DNA of 30,386 nt from Planctomycetota bacterium. Lineage in GTDB: Bacteria > Planctomycetota > GCA-002687715 > DRQF01. A program made the position numbers. The stretch covers positions 18,253 through 48,638 of the forward strand of contig JALTLO010000049.1 of the NCBI GenBank assembly GCA_027001995.1, written 5' to 3'. This document shows, piece after piece, positions 6,001 to 12,000 of this stretch. Position 1 is the stretch's first letter. Every line of letters starts with the position of its first letter.

Positions 6001-9000
6001 AATGCTGAGATCGATCGCGACCTTGATACTGATTCTCCATGTCTCTGCGTTCGGACAGGGAACACCCGTCGCTTTGGACTTGGCAGTCGAGGCCGCAGGA
6101 CCGTACGACACGGCCAATTGGGCAACCCGTGTCAACAACGCCAACTTGATCGACTTACTTTCGACAAACTCCATTTCCAGTCCTGTTCTGGCACCGGGCA
6201 ATCCTTTGGGATGGGCCCTTGCCAACTTCTATCGCCTACGCTGGAATCGGGCGGTCAACCGCTTGGGCACCCCTTTTGCTGGGTCCACTTCGAAACTCCG
6301 TCTTACCCACCTCTACAGCTCATCGTGGATCATTGAGAACAGTGGCTTGACTTGGGGAATCGACGTGGTCGAAGGACCGTTCGGCAATTACGGATTTGCG
6401 GGCAGCATCACCATGACAGAAGTGTTTGCCATGGCGAACAAACTGGATGCCCTATTCGTCACGCATTCGGACTCTGACCACCTCAGCACCTCCCTCGCCG
6501 TCGCCATGCTTTTACTTGGCAAACCTGTAATCTGCTCAATCGACTTAGGTGCTGTTGCCCTGGCCTTGGGCGCCCCCCCTTCCCTGGTCGAAATCCCGCG
6601 AACTGGATATCGCGGCGTTTTAACTGCAAACGGCTTGATAAAATATTCCGTCTACAACGGCAAACAGCGTGTCGGCACACCGACGGTGGTCGACTGCAAC
6701 GCCTATGCGTTCGATACCAATACTGGACAAACCATCATCCATGGTGGTGACGTCGAAGACCCAGGCTTTGCCACTCACATCATGAGCGCGAATTGGTACG
6801 CCGACTTCCTCCTAAACCCCAGCACATCTTACGTCCCACACAACTATCAATTCCTGAGCCACGAACTTGAATACACCCATTTCGGCTCAGCTCTCCTCAA
6901 GCTCAATATGCCAACAGTCGGGCCCTGTCCTCCAAGTCGCTTCGTCCTGATCTGGGGTGAAGCGGTCGAGTTCTGATTCAAGTAAATCCCCATAGCTGCA
7001 ACCGCCTAACCGACTAGAAACCCAGACCTTTGCCCGAATATCCACACCCCAACTCCTTACGCTGGGTTGGGGTGCGATTTTTTGCCTTCGACTTCACTTC
7101 CACAGGAAACTTCCGGTATCATGCGGCTCACCCAACAAGGACGGTTACCCATGCCACTGTATCGCCACAACACTCCCTACGCTGCTCTAGTCGCACTTAC
7201 GTTATTTCTCATGGCCGCTTGCTCCGACAACAGCTCAAGAGACAGAAACAATGAGGAGCCAATCGGTGGAGCGTTCGCTCCGATTCTTCACCCCAACCCC
7301 AACATGGATGAGGTTGAAGAACTCAGTGAACAGGTCGCGAACCGATTGATCGAGTTTTCTTATCGGCTAAAAGAACGTGACCTTAGGGGAGCATCAGCAT
7401 ATGTTTCTCCCACCATTGAAGGAAGTTCCCTCGCACAAGGAACGGTCACCGGCGACATCTCTCTTCCGCTCAACAGTAAGCAAGTGATTCGTGAGGTGTC
7501 TGAGAAACTCCCCCCCTTTTCTCGGGACGAATTCCTTGGGGCACTCGACCAAACTCTGGCCACCTTCACGACACTCGACTATGTGTTCTTTAAGACCAGG
7601 GGAGCTGAGTTCAATCGAAATGGTGATCGAGCTATCCTCAAGATGACTGCTTCGCTCATTGGAAGCAATCACAATGGCGGAAGACGCTCTCTCTATGCCT
7701 GGGCCGACGCCGCTGCCAGCCTTTCTGACGACGGTTGGATCCTCACCGGTTTTTCCGTGCGCAAAACCCGTGCGAAGGAGTGCCAGAAACCTCTTTTCAA
7801 AGAAGTAGCCACTGCTGCAGGTATCGCCGTCGATGGACCGCGAATCGGAACTGAGGGAAACGATCGTTTTTATTGGCGAGGATCAAGCGCCGCAGACTTC
7901 GACGGTGATGGTCTCATCGACATTTTCAGCTCCGGTTTCAAGAGGAACTTTCTTTATCGCAACAAGGGTGATGGATCCTTTGAGGAAGTAGCCGAGGCGT
8001 CTCAAGTTGCTCAACCTTCAGGCCCCACATCGACGATTTTCTTCGATTTCGATCGAGACGGTGATCAAGATCTCCTTCTGGGTTTCGTCGGTTGGGAAGA
8101 AGATGGCTTGCCCTTGGGCGACAGCCTTCATTTGCTCCGTAACGACGGCGGCACTTTCGTCGATGTCAGCCAAGAGGTTGGGCTCAACAATTTCCGGGGA
8201 CCGACATTCTCATCGATTGTCGGTGATTTCGACAACGACGGCTGGTTAGACATTTATGTGTGCAACTACGAGAGACTGGATGCCGCTTACCCGGACTCCT
8301 GGTTCGCCGCTACCAATGGTAGTGAAAACTTCCTTCTCATGAATCACAAAGGAAAATCGTTCACCAACGAAGCCCGAGAGCGTGGCATCACCGGCAGTCA
8401 TTGGACTTTTGCAGCCGCTGCTGCGGACTTCGATGAAGATGGCGACTTAGATATCTATTCCGTGAATGACTATGGAGTGAACGCCCTTTTTGTCAACGAC
8501 GGTACTGGGAATTTCAGCGATCAAGCCAAGCAATTTGGTGTTCTAGACTGTGGCAATGGCATGGGTACCTCCTGGGCCGACTTCAACGGTGACGGCAAGC
8601 TAGACCTTTATGTCTCCAATATGTCGTCATCCGCAGGAAAGAGAATCTTGAGACGTTTGGCCGCTCAAGAGAAGGCACAGGGCGTGCAAAAGACTCTCTA
8701 CAAATTGGCCGCAGGCAACAGCATCTTCATCAACACCGGAAAAACATTCCAAGCAAATCCAGAAGCACTGGGAGGTCGGAGTGCTTCATGGGCGTGGAGC
8801 CCTGTCATCTTCGATGCGAACTTGGATGGCCACGATGACATCTATGTTGCCAATGGCTTCATCTCTGGAGATTCCCTCAAGGACACCTGAAGTGTCTACT
8901 GGCGCCACGTTGTGGCGTCTTCCATGGGTGACTCAGAAGATTCAGCAACCGCAGAAATCACGAAGAAAGCAAACATTCAAGAAGACAAAGTCGGGAGCGA

Positions 9001-12000
9001 CCAATACAAGACCAACCACATGAGCCTCATCTTCCAGGAAGGGCTCTCCTTCTCAGGCTTCGAACGCAACAAGTTTTTCTTAGGCGACGGCAGTGGTCGG
9101 TTTGTTGATCTCTCTGACTTAAGTGGAGCGGATTCGGAAATGGATTGTCGAGCCGCATGCCTGGCTGACTTCGACAACGACGGAGACCTGGACCTATTCG
9201 TCAACTCCATACAACGAAAAACACATCTGCTCTACCGCAATGACCTTCATCATGACGATCGTCATTTCATCAAGGTTATTCTTCGGGGTACAAGTGGACA
9301 TCCAGATGCCATTGGAGCGACAGTTACACTCCTAGGAAAATCGAAGCAAACACATGTAATCTCTGGAGGGCCTAGCTTCGAGTCTCAACCCGCATTACCT
9401 CACACTTTTGGCGTCAAAGGCAAGACTCAGCGAATCATTCAGGTCCGATGGCCTGGAGGAAATTTGGAGAGCTTTGCAGTCAGCCCCACAAGCGAAAAAC
9501 AAGGGAATCAAATCTCTATATTCGTACTCGAAGAAGGAAGCGGCAAAGCCAAGCGCCATAGCCAAAAATCTTTTGAGCTGGCGGGAGCAAAGAAGAATGT
9601 GGGCCTGTCGATTGGCAAGTTCTTGCCCAAACTGAGCTGGTCTACGACACCCAACGTCCCCATTGATATGATAAACAACGATCAACGGCCAACACTCATT
9701 AACTTCTGGTCGACCACCTGCGTCCCCTGCTTGAAAGAACTGCCCGACTTAGAAAAACTCCACGCAAGTGCTAAATACCGTCTCATGTTGGTGGACATGG
9801 ATGGATTGGCCCATCCAAAGCGGCGCTCTGAGCTATTGGCCCAATTAGCTCCCAGCCTCACCCATGGTTCATTGGACGATAAATCATTGGAGCGTCTCTT
9901 TGGCAGCTCCCAAACTCCTCTGCCAATGAGTATCATCCTAGAGGCAGATGGCCGCATTCGTCGTATCGTACGTGGCGTCATCTCTCTTGAAGACCTATAG
10001 ACCGAGCAAACGAGGCCGAAAATGAACCTAATGCAACATTTCTCTTTGTTCTGCCTGATTATGACTCTTGCTGCTTGTGGCGATTCTCCCCAAGAACTCA
10101 AGGACAATGAGGCCACCCAAAAAAAGCCGAGTTTGTTCTCTTTGAGGAACCGAGCTCGTTTGCACGGTCGTCGCGATAGTGAAGAAGGATTTCAAGAATC
10201 GGCCGAAATCCTTGACCAGATTCTATTGCAAGACCCAAAAGACCTCCGGGCTTTGATGGATCGCTTGCGCTGTGCCCTCCAAATTGATGGACAGGCAAAA
10301 CAAGCCCTAGCGCTTTTGGCTAAAATCGACGCCTTAGAGGTTCCTTCCAGCCAGCGAATTCCATTGGCATTCTTGCGAGGTGTTGCACACAAACGCAACC
10401 AGAATCATAAGGTTGCTTGGAAAGCTTTTACTGAAGTCACTCAAGCACTTCCTGAGCATCCCCAAGGACGATATCAAGCCGGATGGGCCGCAGAAAAAGC
10501 CCAAGAGTTTCCGAGCGCACGTATCCATTTCGAGGAGCTCGTGTCAAAGAAACTGCTCGTCCGCCCCGCCGCCTACCGTCTTTACCGAGTTCTTCAGCGC
10601 CTAGGCGACAAAAATGGAATGAAAAAAGCCTTAGAGATTTACGAATCTCGGCCCAGTGACGAAAAACCAGCCACAGAGAAATGCTCTTTCATGGAGCCCA
10701 GTGTGGCACCCATCCTGTTAGACGAATCACTCGCAAAAAGTCCACCCTTGGTCTTCACTGCCGAAGAAATTGAGGTAAATCCTCCGTCGGAAAAATTGGC
10801 CAATTCCCTAACCTGGGTCTCAGCAGATTTCGACAATAGCGGAATCGAGAGTACGATCGTCATCAACAAGGGTTCCATTCAACTCTTGGCAAGCAAAACC
10901 AGCCCCAGTGAATCCCAAACATTGGCTGTTGAAGGGGCAAAGCAAATCAAAGCTGCCGGGCAAGCCATAGCCATTGACACAGATCATGATGGCGATCTGG
11001 ATGTGGTTTTCTTTGGACAAGGAAGTGACTCTGGCAACAAGCTCATGCTGCTTCGTAACCTCAGCCACGCCAAATTCAAATTGGAGTCTCTGTTCTCGAC
11101 AGAACTCGCCGATTCCTCCCAGGATCTCAATGTCTCTGCTGGCGATTTCGACGAAGGAAATGATATCGACATTGTCGTCGCCGGGGGAAATATAGCGGCA
11201 AGGGTCGCCATGAATCTCCGCAACGACCAATGGCGAGCATTCGAAGTCAAGGGGCAACCTCGTAGCTGGGTTGTGAGTGCCGATTTCACTCAAGACGGAA
11301 TGGCAGACCTCCTGGCTGTTGGCTCTTCCCAGGGGGCAAGCCTTTTTGTCAACACCAACAGAGAGAAGAAACGGGCGATTGCCGCCTTTAGCGATGAGAG
11401 AAAGATCGAAGGATTATCTCAGATCTGGAGGGGTGCCAAAGCTGCTGACTTAGACAACGACGGCGACTTGGATTGCATCCTTTGGGGCCAAGGAGTTAGG
11501 ATCCTCCGCAACCGAGGCCAAGGTCATTTCGACGTAGAAACTCCAACCCAAAACCAAGATCAAACGCTCGCGTCGATTTCTGTCCTTGATCGTGATCAAG
11601 ACGGTCGGCTAGAGATTGAACTGCTCTCCGACGCTGGCAAGACCAATTACAGCTTGGAGGTTGCTTCCAAGGAGATTGGCAATGCCATTGCTTTAGTCCC
11701 CGATGGCCGCAAAGACAATCGAGACGGAGTAGGAGCCATCGTTGAAGTCTTCGCCGGTCAGATTCATACAACGCGCATGGTTCTGAAAGGAGGCCCACTT
11801 CATTTCGGCCTGGGCAAGGAGCAGTTGGATGGATTCGCGATCCGTTGGCCCCAAGGCATTCGTCAATCTGTAGTTGGTAAGGACTTAGACGCCATCAACG
11901 ATGGACTGATCACAGTCAAGCAGAAGCAGGGATTGGTCGCCAGTTGCCCCTTTCTCTTTACCAAGGGTGAGAATGGATGGACTTACAAGTCCGACATTGT

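Follow-up and report, generated by a model that had tools for sequence, protein, structure and literature searches.

Catalogues of bacterial selenoproteins dependent on SelB and SECIS elements list 119 families (PMC13188914, Table 1) or 111 families (BSepDB), and redox enzymes represent the majority of known selenoproteins (PMC13188914, section 7). An FG-GAP, CRTAC1 or ASPIC fold is absent from the 119 families of the whole 2026 table, where the families of Haft and Tolstoy 2025 were covered only as rows of that table, and no NCBIfam model covers the selenocysteine (Sec) site described here. Moreover, literature searches pairing selenoprotein or selenocysteine with ASPIC, UnbV, FG-GAP or CRTAC1, as well as a search on UnbV function in the enediyne context, returned no relevant match. 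The family is not wholly unreported, given that Table S9 of Kim et al. 2016 (PMC4807772) contains four ASPIC/UnbV plus FG-GAP selenoprotein candidates from planctomycetes P1 and P2; neither the main text nor S2 Text mentions ASPIC, UnbV or FG-GAP. These candidates, which carry IMG identifiers without sequences and were matched by their table description, very likely belong to the present family, since D-L-G-S-F-F-W forms occur in it (P0073, P0213). The entries are table rows only; they neither define the family nor give its Cys homologues, its structure, its range or a link to thioredoxin.

The locus analyzed in this study lies in a window of 30,386 nucleotides from a Planctomycetota genome. 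It shares with SelB/SECIS-dependent selenoproteins an in-frame UGA, a consensus-matching bSECIS hairpin and selABCD in the genome, but differs from the listed families in that the Sec is not located in the thioredoxin domain, where the CxxC consists of Cys alone, and in that Cys homologues are rare, most intact homologues carrying other residues. Like murine CRTAC1 (9etn; Z 41.5, rmsd 2.6 over 441 residues, model residues 4-563), the protein consists of an FG-GAP propeller followed by ASPIC/UnbV; unlike CRTAC1, it has a Sec codon as well as two further domains, one NTF2-like and one TlpA-like, and its alignment to the CRTAC1 profile (E 6e-42) leaves out positions 231-412 of the profile, the part holding the Sec insertion. 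With TlpA/ResA/DsbE reductases it has in common a W-x-x-x-C-x-x-C thioredoxin fold in an exported chain, and the MsrA/MsrB-thioredoxin fusion (NF010625) provides the working model of a catalytic domain recycled in cis, although the presumed catalytic domain here is a propeller instead of Msr, and every NCBIfam score for these reductases and fusions is far under its cut-off. Sec would be placed on a fold without catalogued Sec and outside the cytoplasm.

Decoding of the UGA at codon 580

Translation of 7151-10000 (plus strand) yields 949 residues in a single intact and conserved frame, interrupted by one non-terminal stop, the TGA of codon 580 (KDT-U-SVYWRHVV), as the survey had reported. Under table 11 the shared frame is called as two ORFs, 7067-8890 and 8912-10000. 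Likewise, 59 of 120 listed database homologues stop exactly at the DT before the UGA, in agreement with the previously noted shortened homologues covering the pre-UGA part. The Sec members are absent from the checked catalogues because gene callers cut every one of them in two. Features of the locus are summarized in the table.

Features of the selenoprotein locus (positions within the window)
Feature	Position	Strand	Basis
Full gene, 949 aa, one UGA read through	7151..10000	+	translation
Signal peptide, lipobox-like MAA-C24; putative lipoprotein export	7151..7222	+	sequence; similar leaders in close orthologues
NTF2/SnoaL-like domain, ~residues 51-211	7301..7783	+	predicted model, fold match
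Seven-blade FG-GAP beta-propeller, seven DxDxDG calcium-type loops	7880..9241	+	profiles, motifs, predicted model
Helical insertion in blade 6, ~residues 578-629, opening with D-T-U	8882..9037	+	predicted model (model residues 346-395)
In-frame TGA, selenocysteine 580	8888..8890	+	translation; TGA column in homologues of two phyla
bSECIS-type hairpin, 8-bp stem, GUU loop 18 nt after UGA	8901..8919	+	folding, consensus rule
ASPIC/UnbV beta domain	9260..9559	+	PF07593 at residues 720-775, above cut-off; predicted model
TlpA/ResA-like thioredoxin-fold domain, C857-V-P-C860 at 9719-9730	9608..9997	+	profiles, fold match
Lipoprotein-like TPR + FG-GAP + ASPIC/UnbV + unnamed domain opening with S-C-P-F-L; recurring neighbour	10022..13177	+	profiles, neighbourhood

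Across homologous genes, the Sec column is TGA in 112 of 127 from Planctomycetota (130 rows less three weak neighbouring FG-GAP matches with E >1e-20) and in 34 of 46 from Acidobacteriota; genes sharing an identical 75-nt context were counted once (L093; L259 and L260). Neither TAA nor TAG occurs at the column in the genes from these two phyla, and the terminal stops of the same genes comprise 50 TGA, 29 TAG and 22 TAA. The family was found in 57 of 301 sampled Planctomycetota genomes, with up to seven copies per genome, and in 34 of 201 Acidobacteriota genomes. Cys occupies the column in a minority of intact homologues: in seven of the 15 non-TGA Planctomycetota genes (E in four, D in two), in two of the 12 from Acidobacteriota and in two of 59 database proteins (E 22, S 11, D 9, next to cases of A, G, R, L and I). 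Both Cys homologues quoted previously were recovered (P0004, P0030). The scarcity of Cys breaks the usual rule of selenoprotein discovery and, together with the other residues at the column, implies that Cys/Sec-pair searches would miss the family. A scan for conserved-stretch patterns derived from a 47-row alignment found none; the pattern scan from one protein used Cys codons, and TGA genes were reached only via other patterns.

[quoted passage not shown] 2 legend). The window's hairpin, GGCGCCAC-GUU-GUGGCGUC, agrees with it in all respects (-12.0 to -13.2 kcal/mol) and was located where the survey had placed it, its 13 nt being counted from the first base of the UGA, which corresponds to 10 nt after the last base. 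A scripted version of the rule was passed by 97 of 112 TGA genes of the phylum as opposed to 289 of 2240 synonymous shuffles (13%), failing in the remaining 15 and in 10 of the 34 Acidobacteriota TGA genes; five of 15 non-TGA genes passed as well. Among homologue hairpins, stem changes on both sides amounted to 79 cells vs 43.8 +/- 5.8 in shuffles, and pairing in the fixed register reached only 65.7% of cells vs 62.3% at a slide of -3. Folding energy differed from shuffles for 31 nt (z -3.46) and was no better than shuffles for stretches of 73 nt (z -0.07) and 113 nt. An Rfam search of positions 6000-14000 gave no match. Taken alone, the window's hairpin is weak evidence of Sec; canonical-looking selenoproteins of the host genome carry a GUU-type loop of the same kind.

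The host genome encodes selA, selB, selD and a tRNA-Sec (selC). Within the phylum, 56 of 57 TGA-bearing genomes possess selA, compared with 221 of 301 sampled genomes overall, and the single exception has tRNA-Sec. Cys stands at the column in three genomes devoid of selA, selB and tRNA-Sec. Outside the phylum, selA was present in three of three TGA genomes and missing from the genome with Cys. The proposed read-through is upheld by the codon column, by the SECIS-like hairpin, by the joint occurrence of TGA genes and Sec machinery, and by Cys where that machinery is missing: the in-frame stop that splits the gene into two calls almost certainly encodes selenocysteine. From this strong comparative evidence at the sequence level, it can be inferred with high confidence that SelB would read the hairpin following UGA 580 and insert Sec.

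Domain organization and position of the selenocysteine

The protein is probably a single exported, lipid-anchored selenoprotein. The NTF2-like domain is modelled with a pLDDT of 93 and has 3ef8 as best fold (Z 14.1, rmsd 2.9 over 136); weak SnoaL_2 matches were found in eight of 52 aligned members. The propeller carries the FG-GAP repeats and DxDxDG loops of the CRTAC1/ASPIC-UnbV family (PF13517, E 5e-50), these motifs being the indication of calcium binding present in the sequence, and is followed by ASPIC/UnbV (PF07593, 28.7 bits vs a cut-off of 23.4). The C-terminal C-V-P-C described earlier was confirmed in a TlpA/ResA-like domain with a thioredoxin fold (Foldseek 4nmu, E 6e-8, target TM 0.72), which scored below the cut-offs of the named families (ResA 29.5 of 170, TlpA 26.7 of 230, Pfam thioredoxin 19.6 of 23.5).

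The survey had placed the Sec between propeller and UnbV_ASPIC. This had to be corrected: of the seven DxDxDG repeats, six are found before U580 and the last (673-681) after it, so that in the predicted model the Sec sits within the seven-blade propeller, on the helical insertion of blade 6 and among invariant residues. Nearly invariant residues unrelated to calcium binding are M471, N490-M491-x-S493, R498, W547-x-W549, D578, W584, E638, D665 and R667; apart from the Sec site, no Cys or His is among the conserved columns of the family alignment.

Co-occurrence of selenocysteine and the CxxC motif

Among thioredoxin-tailed members, the CxxC is intact in 113 of 121 rows with Sec or Cys at the column vs 7 of 68 other rows, being mostly lost where the column holds E, D, S, N, A or Q. 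After correction for kinship on the FastTree tree, eight independent pairs remained, of which 4.9 changed the same way, 0.1 the opposite way and 3.0 showed no difference (median p 0.0625); this support for joint evolution of the Sec site and the attached thioredoxin domain is suggestive. The survey had proposed a Sec/thioredoxin redox pair in one chain; the pairing gains support from this distribution, whereas the redox function itself is presumptive. Local Cys residues near the Sec were found in none of 79 genes with Sec and CxxC vs 17 of 29 Sec genes lacking CxxC; the 17 genes represent three clades, and the other 12 have no local Cys. The seven genes of the Cys clade have no thioredoxin domain whatsoever.

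The objection that Cys is not conserved at the column holds in so far as Cys is rare. Proteins carrying E, D, S or N there, mostly without CxxC, nevertheless look like derived non-redox paralogues and are probably inactive, being nested inside Sec clades. No root is claimed for the FastTree tree because a long-branch join of the Cys clade was flagged.

Proposed function and alternative explanations

In the modelled chain, an NTF2-like domain, a calcium-type seven-blade CRTAC1 propeller, ASPIC/UnbV and a TlpA-like domain would follow one another, with Sec at the start of a helix that blade 6 carries as an insertion between its strands b and c. Judged from the topology of the propeller, Sec would lie on the face opposite the calcium loops, beside the cluster of nearly invariant residues, which most likely form an active site; the CRTAC1/ASPIC-UnbV family, so far without an explained molecular function, would thereby gain a candidate active site. 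The selenolate could attack an oxidized group or disulfide of an extracytoplasmic substrate, possibly a protein in view of the TPR tails of many members (TPR in 28 of the 29 tails that were scanned). The in-chain CxxC would then reduce the oxidized Sec and be re-reduced by DsbD, and in lineages lacking CxxC, a Cys often found at -1, +2 or +5 could resolve the Sec instead. A DsbD-type gene is encoded in the host genome; the DsbD_2 gene at 21102-21779 was set aside as a partner, as it sits in a cbb3 oxidase cluster. Overall, an exported propeller selenoenzyme with Sec recycled by its own TlpA-like domain is considered the rather probable reading.

Alternatively, Sec might act as nucleophile in a non-redox covalent step such as acyl or group transfer, hydrolysis or protein cross-linking, with the CxxC merely repairing oxidized Sec. 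The invariant Trp, Met, Asp, Glu and Arg set resembles a pocket, and the Cys clade does without a thioredoxin domain. An enzyme, aldos-2-ulose dehydratase, ranks second among the fold matches (Z 28), and NTF2-fold domains often bind small molecules. This explanation is unlikely in view of the CU, UxC and UxxxxC variants, which are typical redox motifs, and of the redox nature of most known selenoproteins (PMC13188914). To a similarly low degree it is conceivable that Sec is inserted as a metal ligand on the propeller face, where E, D, N, H or C could substitute for it and the thioredoxin domain would only hold the ligand in its reduced state or insert the metal. Potential ligands are indeed the commonest replacements in database proteins and non-TGA genes, and D578 and E638 are nearly invariant, but the column also accommodates A, G, R, L and I, no further Cys or His is conserved, and loss of Sec accompanies loss of the CxxC.

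It is very improbable that the UGA chiefly serves as a selenium-dependent switch, giving a six-bladed fragment without selenium and the full protein with it, Sec chemistry being secondary. Termination at Sec codons is common and many residues replace Sec in intact homologues; however, a chain ending at codon 580 would lack half of blade 6 as well as blade 7 and thus be unable to form a closed propeller, and genomes without Sec machinery have Cys rather than an arbitrary residue. That Sec is absent altogether, the locus being a pseudogene, a pair of separate genes or a case of UGA decoded as Trp, is hardly credible. A GTG at 8912 could start a second ORF of 362 aa and the truncated form is present in databases, yet the stop is always TGA at one position in three phyla, the only UCA-anticodon tRNA of the host genome is tRNA-Sec, TGA is its commonest long-ORF stop (834 of 1998), and Trp never occurs at the column in intact members from Planctomycetota, Acidobacteriota or the databases; the Trp and split-gene readings were rejected on these grounds.

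Extending the recycled-selenoenzyme reading, an ancient, exported, multi-copy enzyme class may tentatively be envisaged, in which the CRTAC1/integrin-type propeller would be catalytic, Sec ancestral and the thioredoxin fed by DsbD, TPR tails or the neighbour would bring protein substrates, and the numerous proteins of Acidobacteriota and Planctomycetota annotated as 'TPR/FG-GAP/ASPIC' and carrying E, D, N or S at the column would be pseudoenzyme descendants. If true, the family would rank with the larger selenoprotein families in the two phyla and provide the first enzymatic function for the ASPIC/UnbV fold.

The TPR-propeller protein encoded 21 nt downstream, with its conserved S-C-P cysteine, is a candidate for one substrate or partner. 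It adjoins the Sec gene in only nine of 20 close orthologues and was found in 54 genomes where no Sec gene was detected; for its C-terminal domain, Atlas returned only unnamed clusters. A promoter and terminator scan gave counts near chance, with no plus-strand terminator between the two genes and one terminator-like stem at 7045-7074, upstream of the Sec gene.

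Single reading frame and occupancy of the predicted selenocysteine column

The gene under study was found to comprise 949 codons in one frame with a single internal stop at codon 580 (context K-D-T-U-S-V-Y-W-R-H-V-V), as the survey's finding had held and as translation bore out; ORF calling with table 11 cuts it in two. Pfam matches of the protein included FG-GAP_3 (E 5e-50), UnbV_ASPIC (residues 720-775) and, under cut-off, thioredoxin-type families (residues 833-938). NCBIfam returned weak ResA/TlpA-type matches only, and none of its models covered the region of the predicted selenocysteine (Sec), U580 (47 members checked).

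Features of the window discussed in this part
Feature	Position	Strand	Description
Gene under study	7151-10000	+	949 codons
Table 11 ORFs	7067-8890, 8912-10000		parts of the gene under study
In-frame TGA	8888-8890		codon 580
Hairpin	8901-8919		8 bp, GUU loop beginning 18 nt past the UGA
Neighbour gene	10022-13177	+	21 nt downstream; 1051 aa; TPR, FG-GAP, ASPIC/UnbV, unnamed C-terminal domain
ORF	13196-13810		204 aa; no match in Pfam or NCBIfam
ORF	17415-19112		565 aa; no match in Pfam or NCBIfam
cbb3-type cytochrome c oxidase cluster	19199-29749		ccoP/N/O-like, heavy-metal P-type ATPase, DsbD_2, 4Fe-4S protein; adjoins a divergent multiheme cytochrome that weakly matches ExtKL (NF040886)

Residues 434-810 were searched against 301 genomes from the phylum of the window, taken to be Planctomycetota because its close homologues bear such names. 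At E up to 1e-25 this yielded 126 matches in 65 genomes, 111 of the matches with TGA, and all 126 were retrieved. Three weak neighbouring matches were removed, one duplicate context was counted once and two genes found beside listed matches were included, leaving 127 genes. The U580 column of these genes, at offset 0 throughout, holds TGA in 112, Cys in seven, Glu in four, Asp in two and Arg in two. Terminal stops of the 101 complete TGA genes are mixed (50 TGA, 29 TAG, 22 TAA); an ordinary stop would therefore not always be TGA. Among Acidobacteriota, the phylum of a Vicinamibacteria record, 46 of 201 genomes matched, and one TGA was present in 44 of 57 matches, a tally that takes in the unpublished genomes G353 and G456. 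The column count, based on 48 of these matches (46 distinct), gave TGA in 34 and other residues in 12 (N 2, S 2, E 2, C 2, A 2, Q, D). TGA genes also occur in named Verrucomicrobiota and Pirellulaceae records, and 59 of 120 listed protein-database matches stop exactly at D-T.

The hairpin reported by the survey downstream of the UGA was likewise recovered and matches the bSECIS consensus of PMC13188914; for longer stretches around it, folding energy alone was not significant. Within the window's phylum, a scripted bSECIS rule was passed by 97 of 112 TGA genes versus 289 of 2240 synonymous shuffles and 5 of 15 non-TGA genes; corresponding values for Acidobacteriota were 24/34 TGA genes versus 3/12 others. 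In the ungapped alignment, two-sided stem changes amounted to 79 cells compared with 43.8 +/- 5.8 in shuffles. Just 65.7% of cells pair there in a fixed register and 62.3% at a slide of -3; in some clades the stem seems to be shifted.

The window's own genome encodes selA, selD (itself holding one TGA) and tRNA-Sec together on contig C148 and selB on C17, tRNA-Sec being the only UCA-anticodon tRNA among the ARAGORN calls. A strict read-through scan of this genome reduced 4848 candidates to 51 with a hairpin, including the window gene; several of these resemble canonical selenoproteins and have GUU-type loops (RAUHAPT, GYWUGPC, GMSUYW, APWUGYC). Apart from the window gene, probable selenoprotein genes lie at C197:64107(-), C76:35028(-), C27:4141(+), C68:54773(-), C105:4114(-) and C141:49716(-), with the contexts RAUHAPT, GYWUGPC, GMSUYW, APWUGYC, NNWUCIG and GSSULTC. 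Across the phylum, 221 of 301 genomes have selA. Of the 57 holding a TGA gene, 56 have it; in the exception, G228, tRNA-Sec is present and selB was not found. Searches of three genomes with Cys at the Sec column (G005, G142, G227) found no selA, selB or tRNA-Sec. Outside the phylum, three genomes with TGA have selA and one with Cys is without it. Since kin are not independent, no p-value is claimed.

Term searches for FG-GAP, CRTAC1 or ASPIC families were negative for the 119-family table of PMC13188914 (whole text), deep-Sep (PMC12013277; text and four supplements), the text and one supplement of BSepDB (PMC13326102) and the text of SelCysML (PMC13745706). Table S9 of Kim et al. 2016 (PMC4807772) contains four ASPIC/UnbV FG-GAP selenoprotein candidates, three of them with SECIS. 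This large selenoprotein family has very likely been recorded once, in a supplement, and is missing from the catalogues checked. Passages of PMC3174227 and PMC12758564 name ASPIC/UnbV or CRTAC1 genes and give no function.

Predicted architecture and location of U580

In a structure model of residues 235-949, computed from a 47-row alignment (pLDDT 90, pTM 0.85), a propeller of seven blades is followed by an ASPIC/UnbV beta domain and a thioredoxin fold. Among solved structures, murine CRTAC1 ranks first (9etn; Z 41.5, rmsd 2.6 over 441), and the runner-up has Z 28.1. The survey had placed Sec between the propeller and the UnbV_ASPIC domain; instead, U580 is predicted at the start of a helical insertion in blade 6, between its strands b and c, and of the DxDxDG loops six precede it and the seventh follows. 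Residues nearly invariant outside the calcium loops in 107 Sec genes are M471, N490, M491, S493, R498, G522, N523, W547, W549, G569, D578, W584, E638, D665 and R667, which the model's strand order assigns to b-c loops and strand-a entries. These elements constitute the ligand-binding face of integrin-type propellers, and we infer an active site on this face.

Residues 51-211 are predicted to adopt an NTF2/SnoaL-like fold. The leader ends in the lipobox-like M-A-A-C24, and we infer that the protein is exported; a crude pattern detected a lipobox in just 39 of 108 Sec genes, and lipidation is therefore not general. Of 49 long C-terminal tails, 29 were scanned, and 28 of these proved to be TPR.

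Association of Sec with the C-terminal CxxC

The 112 Sec genes comprise 79 having a thioredoxin domain with CxxC, nine having the domain without CxxC, 20 without the domain and four that are cut. CxxC is absent in all five Glu/Asp genes with the domain, and in Acidobacteriota it is present in 34/34 Sec genes versus 1/10 others. A choice by motif out of 146 database proteins gave 59 intact family members; CxxC is present in both Cys forms among them, versus 6 of 54 others having the domain. A pooled, unrooted tree was computed from 189 rows, leaving out short-upstream rows and excluding the Sec column and tail; intact CxxC occurs in 113/121 Sec/Cys rows versus 7/68 others. Eight independent pairs on supported branches gave 4.9 in the same direction, 0.1 opposite and 3.0 without difference (median p 0.0625). 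Because non-Sec rows nest among Sec rows (about 15 changes), the tree suggests that Sec was lost repeatedly and that CxxC decayed afterwards. Cys at -1, +2 or +5 was observed in 0/79 Sec genes with CxxC versus 17/29 without it, the 17 forming three clades (CU, UxC, UxxxxC). Counting against the link, 12 of these 29 genes have neither CxxC nor a local Cys, and a seven-gene Cys clade is without the thioredoxin domain.

The conserved TGA column, the hairpin and the co-occurrence with selA support read-through as claimed by the survey, and Sec is almost certainly inserted at UGA 580. That the UGA acts as a selenium switch is very improbable, and that no Sec is inserted there still more so. Regarding function, the association with CxxC is in line with the redox role proposed by the survey: a relay would probably link substrate, U580, C857/C860 of the TlpA-like domain and DsbD, a DsbD-type gene being located elsewhere in the genome. 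Sec as a metal ligand and Sec as a non-redox nucleophile we both regard as unlikely, and equally so. The Sec site provides a testable hypothesis for the ASPIC/UnbV FG-GAP family, namely a candidate active site and a possible redox relay.

Neighbour gene and related loci

The unnamed C-terminal domain (~420 aa) of the neighbour gene product opens with S-C-P-F-L and has a conserved S-C-[PA] cysteine. This gene is present at 9 of 20 close-orthologue loci, seven times on the same strand and twice on the opposite one, and at five of the eight loci in Acidobacteriota. By genome it occurs in 40/57 with a Sec gene versus 54/244 others (94/301 in all); 109 of 110 matches are free of internal stops. It is a candidate partner, frequent but not obligate.

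A Cys clade without the thioredoxin domain (loci L045, L047-L052, L167, L295, L296; D-Y-C-T-x-[FY]-W-x-x-D-[IV]) is distinct and occurs whether or not a genome has Sec machinery; its proteins would be easier to express than Sec forms. At L057, L124, L128, L144 and L146, two to four genes of the Sec family stand in tandem, and every one of them has a TGA and a hairpin of its own; several are extended at the N-terminus by a long stretch (up to 957 aa) without Pfam match. The homologue at L054:4032-4200 (G026:C78) contains three in-frame TGAs (D-T-U...L-U-A-E-A-U-G-H-L), the third with its own SECIS-like hairpin (GCGCCA-GGUCC-UGGCGC) followed by an open stretch of 368 codons that includes a CxxC domain. 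Duplication of a Sec segment may have given this homologue two or three Sec residues. Seven other contigs of the window's genome encode distant FG-GAP/ASPIC paralogues at 24-34% identity (C202, C88, C85, C99, C26, C150, C138).
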